From assembly GCA_963702105.1 (NCBI GenBank), contig OY969712.1, positions 1,796,312 through 1,860,311 on the forward strand: a DNA stretch of 64,000 bases, given 5' to 3'. The position numbers and the translations under genes were made by a program. Every line of letters starts with the position of its first letter. Position 1 is the stretch's first letter. The DNA comes from an uncultured Gammaproteobacteria bacterium. GTDB taxonomy: Bacteria; Pseudomonadota; Gammaproteobacteria; Steroidobacterales; Rariloculaceae. Positions 30,097 to 34,310 of this stretch are shown here, piece by piece. The notes under the pieces are model-generated. The model saw only the letters and a program-made list of their open reading frames with translations. It was not told the DNA's origin and made no database searches.

Positions 30097-31143
30097 TCCC
30101 TCTCGATATTCTAAGCGTCGGTGCGGTGACGCCGCTGGGCCTGTCAGCGCCGCCGACATGCGCGGCGTTCCGTGCGGGGCTCAAGGCTCTCGCCGAAGTG
30201 TTTTACCGTACGTTCCCTGCAGCGCCCGTCATCGGCGGAAGAGTTCCCGCCTCGGTGCGTCTTCGCCGAACGTATGCGGACTGGCTGACAAATCTCGCCA
30301 CTCGGTCTCTCGCCGAGGCTATATCCGGCCTTGCAGAGCTTCCGGAGATGGCCCTGATCCTTAATTTGCCGGAACCTGCGAGAAAGCATCCGGCGTTGCG
30401 CTTCGGTTATCAGGACGCGATTCTCGCCAAGTTGCAGGAACGGGTAGCCGTTTCTTTTCCGATCGCGGAAGTGTTGTGCGGCGAAGGCGCAGGGACGCTG
30501 TCGGCCATCCGTCGGGCTGGGGAGCTTCTGGTTTCCAATGCGGCGCGGTATTGTTGCATCGTCGGTGTCGACTCGCTAGTGAATTCCCACGATATTGCCG
30601 GCCTCGAGGCTGCGTTCCGGCTCAAGGATGTAGATCGGCCGATGGGCATCATGCCGGGTGAGGGTGCGGCAAGTTTCATAGTGGCGCGCGGGCAGGGTAC
30701 TCATCCGGGGATGGCACGCATTACAGGGGTTGGGATTGCGAAGAGCAGCGGTTCGAACGTCCTCCCGGATTGCGGCCGGCCTTCGCGACGCGATCGAGGC
30801 TGCATTAGCCGACGATGGGGCTGGCGAGTCGGCTGTCGAATTTCTAGTTACGGATTGGAACGGCGAGCGAGCCCGTGCAATCGCGCATGCGATCGCGGAG
30901 ATGCGAACCTTTCGGACAGTCCGGCCGACCCTGCCGCATTGGCGGTTCGTAGAGGCGGGCGGGTACACCGGCGCCGCGTCCGGGGCGATCGCCGTGGTTC
31001 TCGCGGCCACCGCTTACCACAAGGGCTACGCCCCTGGCCCGGTCTGCGTTTGCGTCGCCTCGTCGATGGATGACCATGCCGCCTGCGTCGTTCGACCCTC
31101 TCGATTGGCTGTCGCAGAGGGCGCCGGTCGATGGCAGCACTGA
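30093..31143 (+). pseudogene. Thiolase-fold beta-ketoacyl-synthase-like protein, interrupted by a +1 frameshift near 30755-30761
   Basis: Frame A (30093..) reads ...MGIMPGEGAASFIVARGQGTHPGMARITGVGIAKSSGS and then decays into Arg-rich junk. Frame B (track ORF 30730..31143) continues plausibly: SSRIAAGLRDAIEAALADDGAGESAVEFLVTDWNGERARAIA...GGYTGAASGAIAVVLAATAY. ATGA overlap with the DUF2169 stop. Confidence 0.65.
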
Positions 31144-32423
31144 TTCGACCGGGCCATTCCGCGTTCGGAGATCGCGATTCGGCCATTCCCGAGCTCGTCA
31201 GAGATCACTATCTGGATGCTGTCTTCCTGGCAGATACGCGCCCGGCGATGAGCGTTGCGCCAAACGTTGACTTGCGACATTTCACCCGCCTCGACGAACG
31301 TCTGGCCGCCAACTTGGACGGGCTGACGGTGGCTGCGGATAGGGCGTGGCGGGTCGGAGCGGAGTGTCTGATCGCGCCTACGACCGGGCAGACTTTCACC
31401 CTCGGCGTACTCGCGATGCGGGCCGGGCGTTTTTCGCTGCTTCGGCGACTATTCGCATTGGCAGAGGCGGTTCCGGAGACACTAAACGGCCTCGCGGGGG
31501 CATGCGGATGGTTGGAGGCGCGGCAAGGCCGGGCCCTGTCCGAGGAACTATCGCGATCCGGCAGCGCCACGGAGCGCCTTGTGGGAATTGCGGCGGTGGC
31601 GGCGCACCGTCTCGACGGCAGGGTGATCGCTTCGGGTTTCGAGGATCCGTCGCCCGAAGTCAGGGCCGGCGCATTTCGTGCTGCCGCTGAGCTCGGCTCG
31701 CGGCAGTACCTTTCGACGTGTATGGCAGCGCTGGCGAGCGCGGATCCAAATCTTCGATTTTTGGCGGCTTGGTCGGCGGCGCTTCTCGGAAATCGCACTG
31801 ATGCAATCGCTGAGCTGCAGCAAGCAGCTCTCGGTGATTCTACAAATGCCGACTCCGCGCTTGTGCTTGCGCTGCAGGCGCTCGGTCCGAGGGAGGCCCG
31901 CGGTCTTCTGGAACGAGTTGCCGAAGACCGGTCAAGGCTGCCGCAACTGGTCCGCGGCGTCGGGGTTTCCGGCGATACCGTATACGTTCCTTGGCTCATC
32001 GATCTTATGTCAGAAGTTGGCGTTTCACGTATCGCCGGCGAGGCGTTCACCACCATAACCGGAGCGGACCTTCGATCGAAACGGCTCAGTACTGGTGCGC
32101 CAAGTGGGTACGAGGCCGGACCTACCGACGACCCCGACGATCCGAACGTCGCGATGGATGCCGAGGAGGGACTACCATGGCCCGATCGAAGGGCCGTTCA
32201 CGTTTGGTGGCGAGACAATCGTGAACAATTTGTAACCGGACGAAGGTACTTCCTCGGCGCGGCGCTAACTGAGAAGCTGTGTCTGCAGGTGCTCGCGCGC
32301 GGCTATCAACGACAGCGCATGCTCGCAGCTAGGCACCTGTGCCTGATGCGACCCGGGACGCCGCTTTTCGATACGGCCTGGCCGGCTTGGCGGCAACTGC
32401 GCCATTTGACATTGATGGGATGA
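31131..32423 (+). CDS. TIGR02270-type helical (HEAT-like) repeat protein, paralog A
   Basis: 430 aa. Shares with paralog B the blocks LDERLAANLDGL / DYRIEAHLDGL, YVPWLIDLMS..RIAGEAFTTITGADLRS / YIPWLMGLMS..RKAGEAFCMITGVNLRS, and WP....V..WW......G.RYL.G ... GYQ.QR. The family name is from memory. Confidence 0.7.
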   Translation: MAALIRPGHSAFGDRDSAIPELVRDHYLDAVFLADTRPAMSVAPNVDLRHFTRLDERLAANLDGLTVAADRAWRVGAECLIAPTTGQTFTLGVLAMRAGRFSLLRRLFALAEAVPETLNGLAGACGWLEARQGRALSEELSRSGSATERLVGIAAVAAHRLDGRVIASGFEDPSPEVRAGAFRAAAELGSRQYLSTCMAALASADPNLRFLAAWSAALLGNRTDAIAELQQAALGDSTNADSALVLALQALGPREARGLLERVAEDRSRLPQLVRGVGVSGDTVYVPWLIDLMSEVGVSRIAGEAFTTITGADLRSKRLSTGAPSGYEAGPTDDPDDPNVAMDAEEGLPWPDRRAVHVWWRDNREQFVTGRRYFLGAALTEKLCLQVLARGYQRQRMLAARHLCLMRPGTPLFDTAWPAWRQLRHLTLMG

Positions 32424-33037
32424 ACGATATGGGCGGTCCACGTCTTCCGGGCCCCGCAGGGGCCGAATCTATCGGCCCTGCGGGCCTCGATCTGCCGGGA
32501 CCGATCGGTCTAGATGCCGGAAGTGGTGCCGCAGTCCTGCGGCGAGTCGTCACGAGCGTTACGAAGGACTGGGAGCCGCCAAGTCCGCGGACCACTCCGG
32601 AAATCGTCGTGCGCGGCCGGACTCTGGAGGCGGCAGGCCGCGAACTCGATGCCCTTCCGGAGTGGGGCCAAGGTGGCGGTATGATTCGGAACGATCCGAT
32701 TCCTGCCGGCAGAACCGCGGAGGTCAGCGTCCAATTGCACGCGCACTTGTTGAAGCGTTTGCCGCGTTGGGCGCATTACGACGACGCGAGCGCTGCCGCT
32801 AAGGCGGAGTGGGATCGAATGATGAGGGCGTTGACTGCCCACGAAGAGCGTCACGTTGCGATTGCGATCGAGGAAGCCGATCGGTGCGCGCACGACCTCA
32901 TGGGAATCGAAATAGAGCACGTTGCGTCGACGGTTACCGAAGCAAATCGGCGCATGCACGACCGTCAGGTTCAGTACGACGACGAGACAAACCACGGCGA
33001 GAAAAATGGCGTAACTCTCGACATCTCGATTTCCTGA
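32420..33037 (+). CDS. HExxH protein resembling DUF922/COG5661 predicted Zn-peptidase; candidate T6SS cargo effector
   Basis: ATG 32420 overlaps the upstream stop (ATGA). 205 aa. Gly/Pro-rich N-terminus GPRLPGPAGAESIGPAGLDLPGPIGLDAG. RLPRWAHYDDASAAAKAEWDRMMRALTAHEERHVAIAIEEA, with HEERH at 32840-32854. YDDETNHGEKNG near the C-terminus. No signal peptide. Confidence 0.6.
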   Translation: MNDMGGPRLPGPAGAESIGPAGLDLPGPIGLDAGSGAAVLRRVVTSVTKDWEPPSPRTTPEIVVRGRTLEAAGRELDALPEWGQGGGMIRNDPIPAGRTAEVSVQLHAHLLKRLPRWAHYDDASAAAKAEWDRMMRALTAHEERHVAIAIEEADRCAHDLMGIEIEHVASTVTEANRRMHDRQVQYDDETNHGEKNGVTLDISIS

Positions 33038-33047
33038 CGACGAGACC

Positions 33048-34310
33048 GTGCTCACCGCATCAGACAGCCCTTCACTGCATCTCGAGCGCCATATGGAAGA
33101 CGCGGCGTTTCTCTGGAGCGTCCGTGATGCAGCCGTGGGAGATAACGAGTACGCGCTAGAGGATCTCGCGCTGCTCGACTATCGCATTGAGGCGCACTTG
33201 GATGGATTGCGAGTTGCCGGTCCGAGGGCGTGGGAACGCTGCCTGGCGGCTCTCGATTCAGTCGACCCGGGAAGAGCGTTCAACGCAGCTGTCCTGGCGC
33301 TCTCGAGTGACGACGGCGGACGGTTGGCTCAACTCCTCGACATTGCGAGCCAAGCGCGAGGCCTGTTGGGGGCCACGTCTTCCGCTTTCGGTTGGGTCGA
33401 GGCGAATGACGCGAAGCGTTGGCTTCAGCCGATGCTAAGGGCGCGGGCGCCGATATATCGGGAATTGGGAATTAGGGGTTTCGCCATGCATCGCATCGAT
33501 CCGGGCCCAGGATTGACGGCGCTCTGTGCGGACTCCGACGGGCTCACGCTCATGAGAGCGCTGCGAACCGTCGGCGAGCTCCGACGCCGCGATCTAGTCG
33601 GCGTCCTACGTGCACAGTTCTCTTGCGATTGGCTGGAACTTCGGTCATGGGCGCTTTGGTCTGCGGTGTTGATCGGTGATGCATCGGCGTTGCCGCCGCT
33701 CGCAGAGCTCATCCGTGATGCTCCGTCGCTCTCGTGTCCGCATGCAATGCAACTGGCCTTCCGCGCCATGGATCTCGCGCATGCTCGACATGTCATCAAG
33801 GCGCTCGCTCAGGATCGGGCGCGGCTTCCGGACGCCGTCACAGGCTGCGGCATCTCGGCGGACCCACTTTACATTCCGTGGCTCATGGGGCTTATGTCAG
33901 ATCCTGAGCTCGCTCGGAAGGCCGGCGAAGCCTTTTGCATGATCACGGGAGTGAATCTCCGGAGCGATGGCCTTGCTGGAGACCCGCCGAGAAGCGTCGA
34001 CCCCGGAGTGCTCGAAGACGACGACGGCGCAGGTCGTCCCGGTAGCTCCGACGCTGACCTCGATTGGCCGAATCCGCGGCTCGTTCGCGAATGGTGGGAG
34101 CTGCATTCGGGCCATTATCGTCAGGGGACGCGCTACCTCGCGGGGGGCCGCGTAGACCGGGACCATTGCTTGCGTATTCTCAAAGAGGGTTACCAAAAAC
34201 AGCGTGCCGGAGCTGCTTACGAGCTGGCGTTGATCGATGGGGAAGCGCCGCTCTTCGAGTGGCGAGCGCCAGGGTTCAGACAACGGCGGATCCTCGGGCT
34301 CGGCGCTTGA
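33048..34310 (+). CDS. TIGR02270-type helical (HEAT-like) repeat protein, paralog B
   Basis: 420 aa. GTG lies 11 nt after the preceding stop. Paralogous blocks as listed for 31131..32423. Confidence 0.7.
   Translation: MLTASDSPSLHLERHMEDAAFLWSVRDAAVGDNEYALEDLALLDYRIEAHLDGLRVAGPRAWERCLAALDSVDPGRAFNAAVLALSSDDGGRLAQLLDIASQARGLLGATSSAFGWVEANDAKRWLQPMLRARAPIYRELGIRGFAMHRIDPGPGLTALCADSDGLTLMRALRTVGELRRRDLVGVLRAQFSCDWLELRSWALWSAVLIGDASALPPLAELIRDAPSLSCPHAMQLAFRAMDLAHARHVIKALAQDRARLPDAVTGCGISADPLYIPWLMGLMSDPELARKAGEAFCMITGVNLRSDGLAGDPPRSVDPGVLEDDDGAGRPGSSDADLDWPNPRLVREWWELHSGHYRQGTRYLAGGRVDRDHCLRILKEGYQKQRAGAAYELALIDGEAPLFEWRAPGFRQRRILGLGA

Follow-up and report, generated by a model that had tools for sequence, protein, structure and literature searches.

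The vgrG1b island of Pseudomonas aeruginosa (PA0095-PA0101) encodes VgrG1b, an OB-fold protein, a DUF2169 protein, a thiolase-like protein, the PAAR-like toxin Tse7, Tsi7 and a HEAT-repeat protein, and in strain PAO1 it ends at the gene for the last of these, PA0101 (PMC4067218, PMC7970981). Islands of this kind have been termed "synteny type A" among DUF2169 islands (Sachar et al. 2025, PMC11883445) and "Class II Tvp system", with TvpC, TvpA and TvpD denoting the DUF6484, DUF2169 and PRK06147 proteins, respectively (Monlezun et al. 2026, PMC13373197). In P. mirabilis, killing is lost when any gene of the island, the armadillo-like repeat gene included, is disrupted by a transposon (PMC11883445), and TIGR02270, the family of PA0101, is the fusion partner of 3.8% of PRK06147 homologs (PMC7714669); these two observations identify TIGR02270 as a conserved accessory gene of the VgrG1b-type island. 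Here we analyze a 64,000-nucleotide stretch of DNA from an uncultured Gammaproteobacteria bacterium of the Rariloculaceae (contig OY969712.1, positions 1,796,312 to 1,860,311; hereafter, the window), in which a type VI secretion system (T6SS) cluster contains two TIGR02270 genes flanking a gene for a DUF922 protein with an HExxH motif. On balance, we favor the view that this middle gene encodes a T6SS cargo effector composed of a new, unstructured N-terminal leader and a DUF922 HExxH hydrolase domain, located at the end of a VgrG1b-type island where TIGR02270 and a small two-transmembrane protein (hereafter, TM55) are encoded, and that the two TIGR02270 genes are PA0101-type accessories of two lineages rather than a private chaperone/immunity pair.

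The DUF922 gene occupies positions 32429-33037 of the forward strand (202 amino acids [aa]; 205 aa if read from the ATG at 32420), within a mechanically called open reading frame (ORF) that runs from a GTG at 32339. A start at MGG (ATG 32429) is common to all homologs, and in a second assembly of the locus the gene was independently called with the same length of 202 aa, indicating that the true start is probably ATG 32429, located 5 nt past the upstream stop. The ATGA overlap, which an earlier note on this DNA had interpreted as translational coupling to the upstream gene, is thus probably not the start of the gene. The same note had associated the protein with the DUF922 family, and this assignment is borne out by a Pfam match to DUF922/PF06037 of 61.6 bits (cut-off 27; E 1.2e-16), the only one obtained at E<=0.1. 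The polypeptide has no PAAR, PAAR-like, Rhs or VgrG domain at that threshold, in agreement with the earlier remark on PAAR and Rhs markers; it also lacks a signal peptide and the eCIS_core domain of extracellular contractile injection system (eCIS) proteins, and its neighbors are T6SS genes.

The HExxH motif pointed out in the earlier note is present at 32840-32854 as HEERH (H141, E142 and H145), and it defines, based on conservation, a putative zinc site and catalytic glutamate. All three residues are invariant in an alignment of 74 sequences, as are, among others, E81, W82, G83, W117, W131, D187 and G193, while R144, E151 and E152 are conserved in at least 90% of the same sequences; E151/E152 and D187 are candidate third zinc ligands. 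The AlphaFold2 model of the protein has a mean predicted local distance difference test (pLDDT) score of 89.7, rising to ~98 for residues 41-205. This putative catalytic domain (32549-33034) is predicted to consist of a beta-sheet and, after it, two long helices, with HEERH in the first helix. As judged from its invariant motif, the DUF922 domain is a probable zinc-dependent hydrolase.

The domain is preceded by an N-terminal leader of ~40 residues (32429-32548; MGGPRLPGPAG...LPGPIGLDAGSG) that is predicted to be disordered, with pLDDT values of 56-62 for residues 1-40. The earlier note had described this segment as a collagen-like, Gly/Pro-rich N-terminus. The segment is indeed rich in Gly and Pro, but it is not collagen-like: MGGPRLPGPAGAESIGPAGLDLPGPIGLDAG does not present a regular glycine at every third residue, and it contains no in-phase G-X-Y run. 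It harbors instead a bipartite motif, MGG-x-R-x-PG-x-LG ... PGP(I/L)G(L/V)D, that is conserved across the DUF922 family. DUF922 genes of T6SS loci with no TIGR02270 gene next to them also encode the leader (L007, L010, L015 and, in part, L013), as do orphan DUF922 genes (L019 and L020). DUF922 proteins in an eCIS context (L024 and P0075) display an eCIS-type leader, LQRxxGNxxVQR, instead, and the leader thus tracks the delivery system.

The same leader occurs on a second, unrelated type of protein. On long contigs, the closest homologs of the upstream TIGR02270 protein of the window (TIGR02270_A) are followed by a 54-aa ORF and then by a protein of ~208 aa that matches the cysteine-proteinase fold family AIM3_BBC1_C (Pfam E 1e-12) and CHAP (E 6e-5). 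These leader-bearing cysteine-peptidase proteins are encoded at L037 9438-10064, L038 4710-5339 and L040 2456-3082, in orphan vgrG islands beside a large Ser/Thr kinase gene, and their N-termini read MGG/MGN...PxPGPIGLD(A/S). The alignment between a DUF922 protein (P0054) and the L037 cysteine-peptidase protein is confined to residues 1-38 (E 3e-9), which argues that the leader has been exchanged between unrelated catalytic domains. It is hence plausible, from its distribution, that the leader is a T6SS-specific delivery element. A sequence search of the PDB with the cysteine-peptidase protein returned no match. Two leaderless peptidase genes were also observed in this group of loci: a paralog of the cysteine peptidase after tagH in L039, and a homolog of Peptidase_M91 (NleD-like effector protease) with the motif HELIH at L038 5374-6222, directly 3' of the leader-bearing cysteine-peptidase gene.

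A word-indexed search identified 75 homologs of the DUF922 protein, of ~200-230 aa and nearly all metagenomic, the best of them 78% identical. Their neighborhoods were compiled from a scan of 185,579 species-representative genomes, which yielded 32 loci onto which the window proteins were mapped with phmmer, and from Pfam-labelled gene tables of metagenomic contigs. In the close DUF922 subfamily, ~19 of 26 loci are linked to a T6SS, with T6SS genes within 10 kb, and the arrangement is hence found mostly inside T6SS loci. The recurrent gene order is ClpV-VgrG-DUF6484-DUF2169-TvpD-PAAR-like::Tox-GHH2-(~300-aa protein)-TIGR02270-DUF922-TagH-TssK, where the ~300-aa gene would be the immunity slot of the PAAR-like::Tox-GHH2 protein. 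This order is present in Steroidobacteraceae, other Gammaproteobacteria, a betaproteobacterium, Candidatus Brocadia and Verrucomicrobiota; Acidobacteriota and methanotrophs are also among the hosts of T6SS-linked DUF922 genes. Six of the 26 loci (L018-L020, L022, L025 and, on a short contig, L002) have no T6SS gene in reach, and in an Anaerolineae locus (L024) the DUF922 gene is linked to an eCIS, adjoining an eCIS_core gene.

The remaining neighborhoods show some variation on this theme. In Crenothrix (L014), Methyloglobulus (L026) and one more metagenome-assembled genome, a single TIGR02270 gene lies downstream of DUF922, and in the closest genomic relative of the window (L001) DUF922 is directly followed by tagH, with no B-type TIGR02270 gene. 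The DUF922 gene follows vgrG with other genes in between in L007 and L013, adjoins a VipA/VipB sheath gene in L015, and comes directly after the PAAR-like gene of a Class III Tvp cluster in L010. The latter locus also encodes, right after its leader-bearing DUF922 gene, a second and very divergent DUF922 paralog (10596-11114; 172 aa, HEQGH, leaderless), which may represent either a decayed copy or a partner. The searched literature contains no paper linking DUF922 to the T6SS, consistent with the earlier statement that no T6SS effector of this family has been characterized.

Beyond the close subfamily, an exhaustive profile search of 1.84 billion representatives returned 2426 relatives (E<=1e-3), many of them with DUF922 inside longer proteins. 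In a Pfam architecture scan covering 19 long relatives, eCIS_core (PF13699, formerly DUF4157) was located N-terminal to DUF922 in 13. Ten of these 13 fusions end with DUF922, and the other three (P0264, P0329 and P0287) have further sequence after it. This layout corresponds to the typical architecture of eCIS toxins, in which DUF4157 is N-terminal and the toxin C-terminal (Geller et al. 2021, PMC8213781); neither that article nor its supplements mention DUF922 or PF06037. Two giant relatives (P0227, 1775 aa, and P0231, 1055 aa) combine two DUF922 domains with a DUF6782 putative metallopeptidase region. Joined to eCIS_core in some proteins and sharing its leader with a different hydrolase in others, DUF922 has the sequence characteristics of a modular, polymorphic-toxin-like domain.

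Taken together, the recurrence of the DUF922 gene in the same slot in most loci, the invariant HExxH, the passenger position behind eCIS_core and the shared leader all point to an effector, and they support the suggestion of the earlier note that the middle protein is a candidate uncharacterized T6SS effector: its relatives lie mostly in vgrG islands, its HExxH is invariant and its domain is modular. Under the mechanism that we propose, the leader, and not the toxin domain, would target the DUF922 protein to the VgrG1b-type spike, and the DUF922 domain would cleave its target in the recipient cell after firing. The TIGR02270 proteins would act as PA0101-type accessories of the spike-loading machinery, and duplication or recombination may have brought their "upstream" and "downstream" lineages together in this genome. 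We infer secretion, catalysis, leader function and target of the DUF922 protein from sequence.

The three ORFs of the module (31131-34310) are all encoded on the forward strand, as originally noted. TIGR02270_A (31131-32423; 430 aa; "upstream" lineage) and TIGR02270_B (33048-34310; 420 aa, or 405 aa from ATG 33093, which may be its start; "downstream" lineage) leave gaps of 5 nt and 10 nt, respectively, to the DUF922 gene. Their assignment to TIGR02270, first made in the earlier note, is upheld by NCBIfam matches of 292.8 and 296.2 bits (cut-off 206.8) covering model positions 3-408 and 6-409 of 410, and both proteins also match Pfam HEAT_2. They are paralogs, as had been proposed, with 34% identity over 406 residues (E 1e-61), and the parallel drawn with PA0101 as the last gene of the vgrG1b cluster agrees with the published PA0095-PA0101 island. 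In the AlphaFold2 model of TIGR02270_A (pLDDT 94, predicted template modelling score 0.90), ~10 helix pairs form a solenoid (residues 15-310), which is accompanied by an acidic loop at residues 320-350 and by a small domain at the C-terminus. Its matches in Foldseek and phmmer searches are generic HEAT/ARM scaffolds only (alphaRep, importin-alpha, the PP2A A subunit and YibA), and a sequence search of the PDB returned only artificial alphaRep proteins. The searched literature assigns no molecular role to this family, in line with the earlier note, which gave no defined function for it.

In at least 10 loci, an ortholog of TIGR02270_A immediately precedes DUF922, and TIGR02270_B clusters with the downstream copies of Crenothrix and Methyloglobulus. 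In most loci TIGR02270 is a single gene, located on the upstream side of DUF922 (A-type) or on its downstream side (B-type), and the flanking duplication is peculiar to this genome. Furthermore, a neighbor-joining tree reveals that TIGR02270 proteins linked to cysteine peptidases nest among those linked to DUF922, so that the tree does not follow toxin type. Two proposals of the earlier note, a dedicated chaperone/immunity pair and a three-part toxin-control module, are thus unlikely as stated: TIGR02270 is the conserved last accessory gene of VgrG1b-type islands, it is present without any DUF922 gene in L041 and PAO1 and with the other toxin type elsewhere, and its tree is not structured by toxin type. 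The leader gene is, conversely, an optional part of the island, because L041 has TIGR02270 and TM55 without a leader protein and the PAO1 island ends at PA0101.

The content of the module is larger than the three ORFs first recognized, since a conserved ORF at 34368-34538 of the forward strand had been overlooked. This ORF (56 codons) encodes TM55, a partner of TIGR02270 that is conserved in ~20 related loci and is called as a gene in the independent assembly of the locus. A TM55 profile derived from five copies matches the window (E 8.5e-24), L004, L005 (three copies), L006, L008, L009, L012, L017, L021, L023, L033-L038 and L041, and TM55 has no Pfam or NCBIfam family. It adjoins either TIGR02270 or the leader protein and accompanies both toxin types; in L041, a full island contains TIGR02270 and TM55 and no leader protein. 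This occurrence with both toxin types and in islands devoid of leader toxins argues against a role as toxin-specific immunity protein. TM55 may be, judging from its distribution, an unrecognized accessory component of VgrG1b-type islands.

When every ORF lying up to 3 kb from an effector gene was clustered, no family proved specific to DUF922 loci. Recurrent families detected in this analysis were a ~92-aa ORF, not present in the window, that precedes tagH in 8 loci, a cytoplasmic family of ~260 aa that adjoins both toxin types in four loci, and a ~150-aa protein that accompanies the cysteine-peptidase gene in two. In two Acidobacteriota loci, a small exported or membrane protein precedes the DUF922 gene (L013 9369-9878, with a lipoprotein-like signal and no Pfam family; L015 1061-1663, with a transmembrane helix), and these two proteins are possible lineage-specific immunity candidates.

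The module is embedded in a T6SS setting on the forward strand, identified through Pfam and NCBIfam scans, with genes for TssF (18333-20201), ClpV (21269-24055) and VgrG upstream and for TagH and TssK (36832-38163) downstream. The GC content falls to 0.59-0.65 at ~24-35 kb from 0.67-0.73 in the flanks, and together with the flanking T6SS core genes this drop substantiates the low-GC island reported in the earlier note; the lower GC content also favors the cargo-effector reading. The island is headed by the VgrG spike protein (24488-26698; Pfam Phage_GPD, Gp5_trimer_C and Phage_base_V), followed by a DUF6484 OB-fold protein of TvpC/PA0096 type (26720-27199; E 3.6e-19), a 269-aa PAAR-like (DUF4150) protein (27232-28041; Pfam Tox-PAAR-like, E 1.1e-29, residues 22-126), two paralogous small ORFs of ~165 aa (27989-28507 and 28523-29014), a DUF2169 chaperone of TvpA/PA0097 type (28843-30096, with a start probably near 29029; E 2.1e-81) and a thiolase-like PRK06147 protein of TvpD/PA0098 type (30093-31143; E 1.4e-32, residues 4-218 only). 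With VgrG, DUF6484, DUF2169, PRK06147, DUF4150 and HEAT/ARM proteins all encoded at 24488-34310, in permuted order, the gene content identifies the island as VgrG1b-type, that is, "Class II Tvp" or "DUF2169 synteny type A".

By its domain, the PAAR-like DUF4150 protein is the specialized effector of the island. Its C-terminal extension of ~140 aa is rich in Cys and His (..CWSCGATV..VADHQPPQS..CHDEKAF..PHCTTCSNSQG) and has no family match. The two ORFs that follow it share 34% identity (E 7e-12) and matched no Pfam family; they are probably the immunity genes of the PAAR-like toxin, which would make this a new toxin with duplicated immunity. The placement of the toxin before DUF2169 is also seen in L037 and L039. 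Past the island, the first core gene encodes TagH (34690-36306; TIGR03354, E 1.2e-99; Pfam FHA and T6SS_FHA_C), in which a long Pro/Ala-rich low-complexity linker separates the FHA and T6SS_FHA_C domains; this linker accounts for a local GC peak (0.73 at 35001-36000) and for many long shadow ORFs on both strands.

Several observations weigh against the interpretation of the middle gene as a cargo effector. No conserved cognate immunity gene was found beside DUF922 genes, which is unusual for an antibacterial effector and is the main weakness of an antibacterial reading. The target may instead be non-bacterial, the immunity gene may lie elsewhere, or the protein may have an accessory role. The Pfam match of the window protein is partial, limited to positions 50-153 of the 153-position DUF922 model. 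The zincin fold is unsupported by structure or sequence comparison with the PDB, where Foldseek found no structure resembling the model (best E 0.7) and a sequence-profile search returned a single chance match only; because of this, the zincin assignment rests on the motif, the Pfam match and a weak published FFAS link to thermolysin (score -7.4; PMC3650047). A leader-only profile search of 5.8 billion proteins recovered nine short fragments and no further cargo types. The identity of 45-60% that DUF922 proteins maintain at a fixed position across phyla is what would also be expected of an accessory gene. Lastly, tblastn with the L037 and L033 orthologs indicates a +1 frameshift in tvpD near 30772-30794 (frame 1 to ~30790, frame 2 from ~30772), reflecting either an error in the sequence or a pseudogene, in which case the PAAR-like toxin would be loaded less well, and the island may be impaired in this strain.

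The alternative that survives best, a real possibility if clearly not our first choice, assigns TIGR02270 a more specific part, that of a dedicated adaptor whose HEAT solenoid would bind the extended leader as importin-alpha binds a nuclear localization signal (NLS) and would thereby attach the cargo to the tip complex of TvpA, TvpD and the PAAR-like protein. In at least 15 loci the leader gene has TIGR02270 as its immediate neighbor, with two different toxin domains, and the nesting of cysteine-peptidase-linked TIGR02270 proteins within the DUF922-linked clade is in keeping with the shared leader, and not the toxin, being recognized. The modeled solenoid is of a peptide-binding type, with importin-alpha/NLS complexes weakly represented among its Foldseek matches, the TvpD-TIGR02270 fusions (PMC7714669) place the family at the tip complex, and the armadillo-like last gene is needed for P. 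mirabilis killing (PMC11883445). The two components are nevertheless found apart in both directions: TIGR02270 occurs without a leader protein in PAO1 and, together with TM55, in L041, and leader-bearing DUF922 genes reside in T6SS loci with no adjacent TIGR02270 gene (L007, the Class III Tvp cluster of L010, L013 and L015). More broadly, the leader could be a new unstructured T6SS delivery signal, read by the TIGR02270 solenoid in an importin-like, peptide-in-groove manner, with TIGR02270 and TM55 forming an unrecognized adaptor through which exchangeable hydrolase toxins, either DUF922 zincin or papain-like peptidase, would be loaded on VgrG1b-type spikes; in this extended form, the proposal is doubtful.

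It is improbable that the DUF922 protein serves this T6SS subtype as an accessory or maturation protease, with the Tvp pre-complex, the PAAR-like toxin or regulators linked to TagH as possible substrates. Such a role would suit the fixed and well-conserved position of the gene between accessory genes and tagH in many phyla, its adjacency to TIGR02270 and TM55, and the lack of both a signal peptide and an identifiable immunity partner. It is difficult to reconcile, however, with the recurrence of DUF922 as a predominantly C-terminal eCIS_core passenger and in giant multi-toxin-like proteins, with the presence of its leader on a different hydrolase in the same slot, with the many otherwise complete islands that lack DUF922 (L041 and PAO1 among them), and with orphan copies located away from T6SS genes.

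More improbable still is an immunity or inhibitor function, whereby the DUF922 protease would be kept in check in producer and sister cells by one TIGR02270 protein or by both: the tight spacing of the three genes, the absence of other conserved immunity candidates within 3 kb and the HEAT-like, all-helical immunity protein of the T6SS toxin Tdi5a (PMC13392607) speak for it, but TIGR02270 is kept alongside unrelated toxins and also where a leader toxin is missing, its tree is indifferent to toxin type, L001 dispenses with the B-type copy, the homologous last gene of P. mirabilis is required for killing and not for protection, and proteins without a signal peptide could protect against cytoplasmic activity only. 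The HEAT-like immunity protein of the Tdi5a/Tdi5b study is not a TIGR02270 protein, and the study was discarded as a direct match and retained as a precedent only.

If the cargo-effector interpretation holds, DUF922, a widespread domain, would join the toxin families of contractile injection systems as a cargo of T6SS and eCIS alike, and a short linear leader would become a search marker for T6SS cargo in environmental bacteria. TIGR02270/PA0101 would gain concrete candidate partners in the leader, TvpD and the 55-aa membrane protein, and it is this handle on the unexplained PA0101 family that would chiefly interest T6SS specialists; were TIGR02270 an adaptor, this would be the first defined function for PA0101-family proteins. 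A portable 40-residue tag could, in addition, serve engineered protein delivery by the T6SS.

Compared with the vgrG1b island, the window presents the same set of VgrG, DUF6484, DUF2169, PRK06147, DUF4150 toxin with immunity, and terminal TIGR02270 genes. It differs in that the PAAR-like toxin and its putative immunity genes are placed before DUF2169 and not after TvpD, the C-terminal domain of the toxin is not Tox-GHH2, TvpD is frameshifted and TIGR02270 is duplicated; moreover, it includes a leader-bearing DUF922 gene and TM55, neither of which has been described for PAO1. The canonical DUF922/COG5661 "predicted secreted Zn-dependent proteases" of Alphaproteobacteria share the Pfam family and HExxH with the window protein, but the Mesorhizobium copies (L027-L032) are only 26-34% identical to it over part of the domain, and the window protein lacks a signal peptide and bears a T6SS-type leader. 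The eCIS_core (DUF4157) fusion proteins likewise share the DUF922 domain and its conserved HExxH, whereas the window protein is encoded in a T6SS cluster and has neither eCIS_core nor an eCIS leader.

Among T6SS effectors, the papain-like Tae amidases are also small hydrolases encoded in T6SS clusters, and a CHAP/cysteine-proteinase fold is present in the sister family with the same leader; DUF922 differs from them as an HExxH protein instead of a Cys-His hydrolase, and as one beside which no periplasmic immunity gene is seen. MIX, FIX and RIX are folded N-terminal marker domains of T6SS cargo effectors. The leader resembles them as a conserved N-terminal element found on different C-terminal toxins near vgrG, PAAR and adaptor genes, and it departs from them in being disordered, Gly/Pro-rich and only ~40 residues long, in being associated so far with two toxin types and in having a putative delivery role. 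What is new in this locus is thus most likely, as far as sequence comparison goes, an effector family with a new N-terminal marker within a known kind of T6SS cargo.

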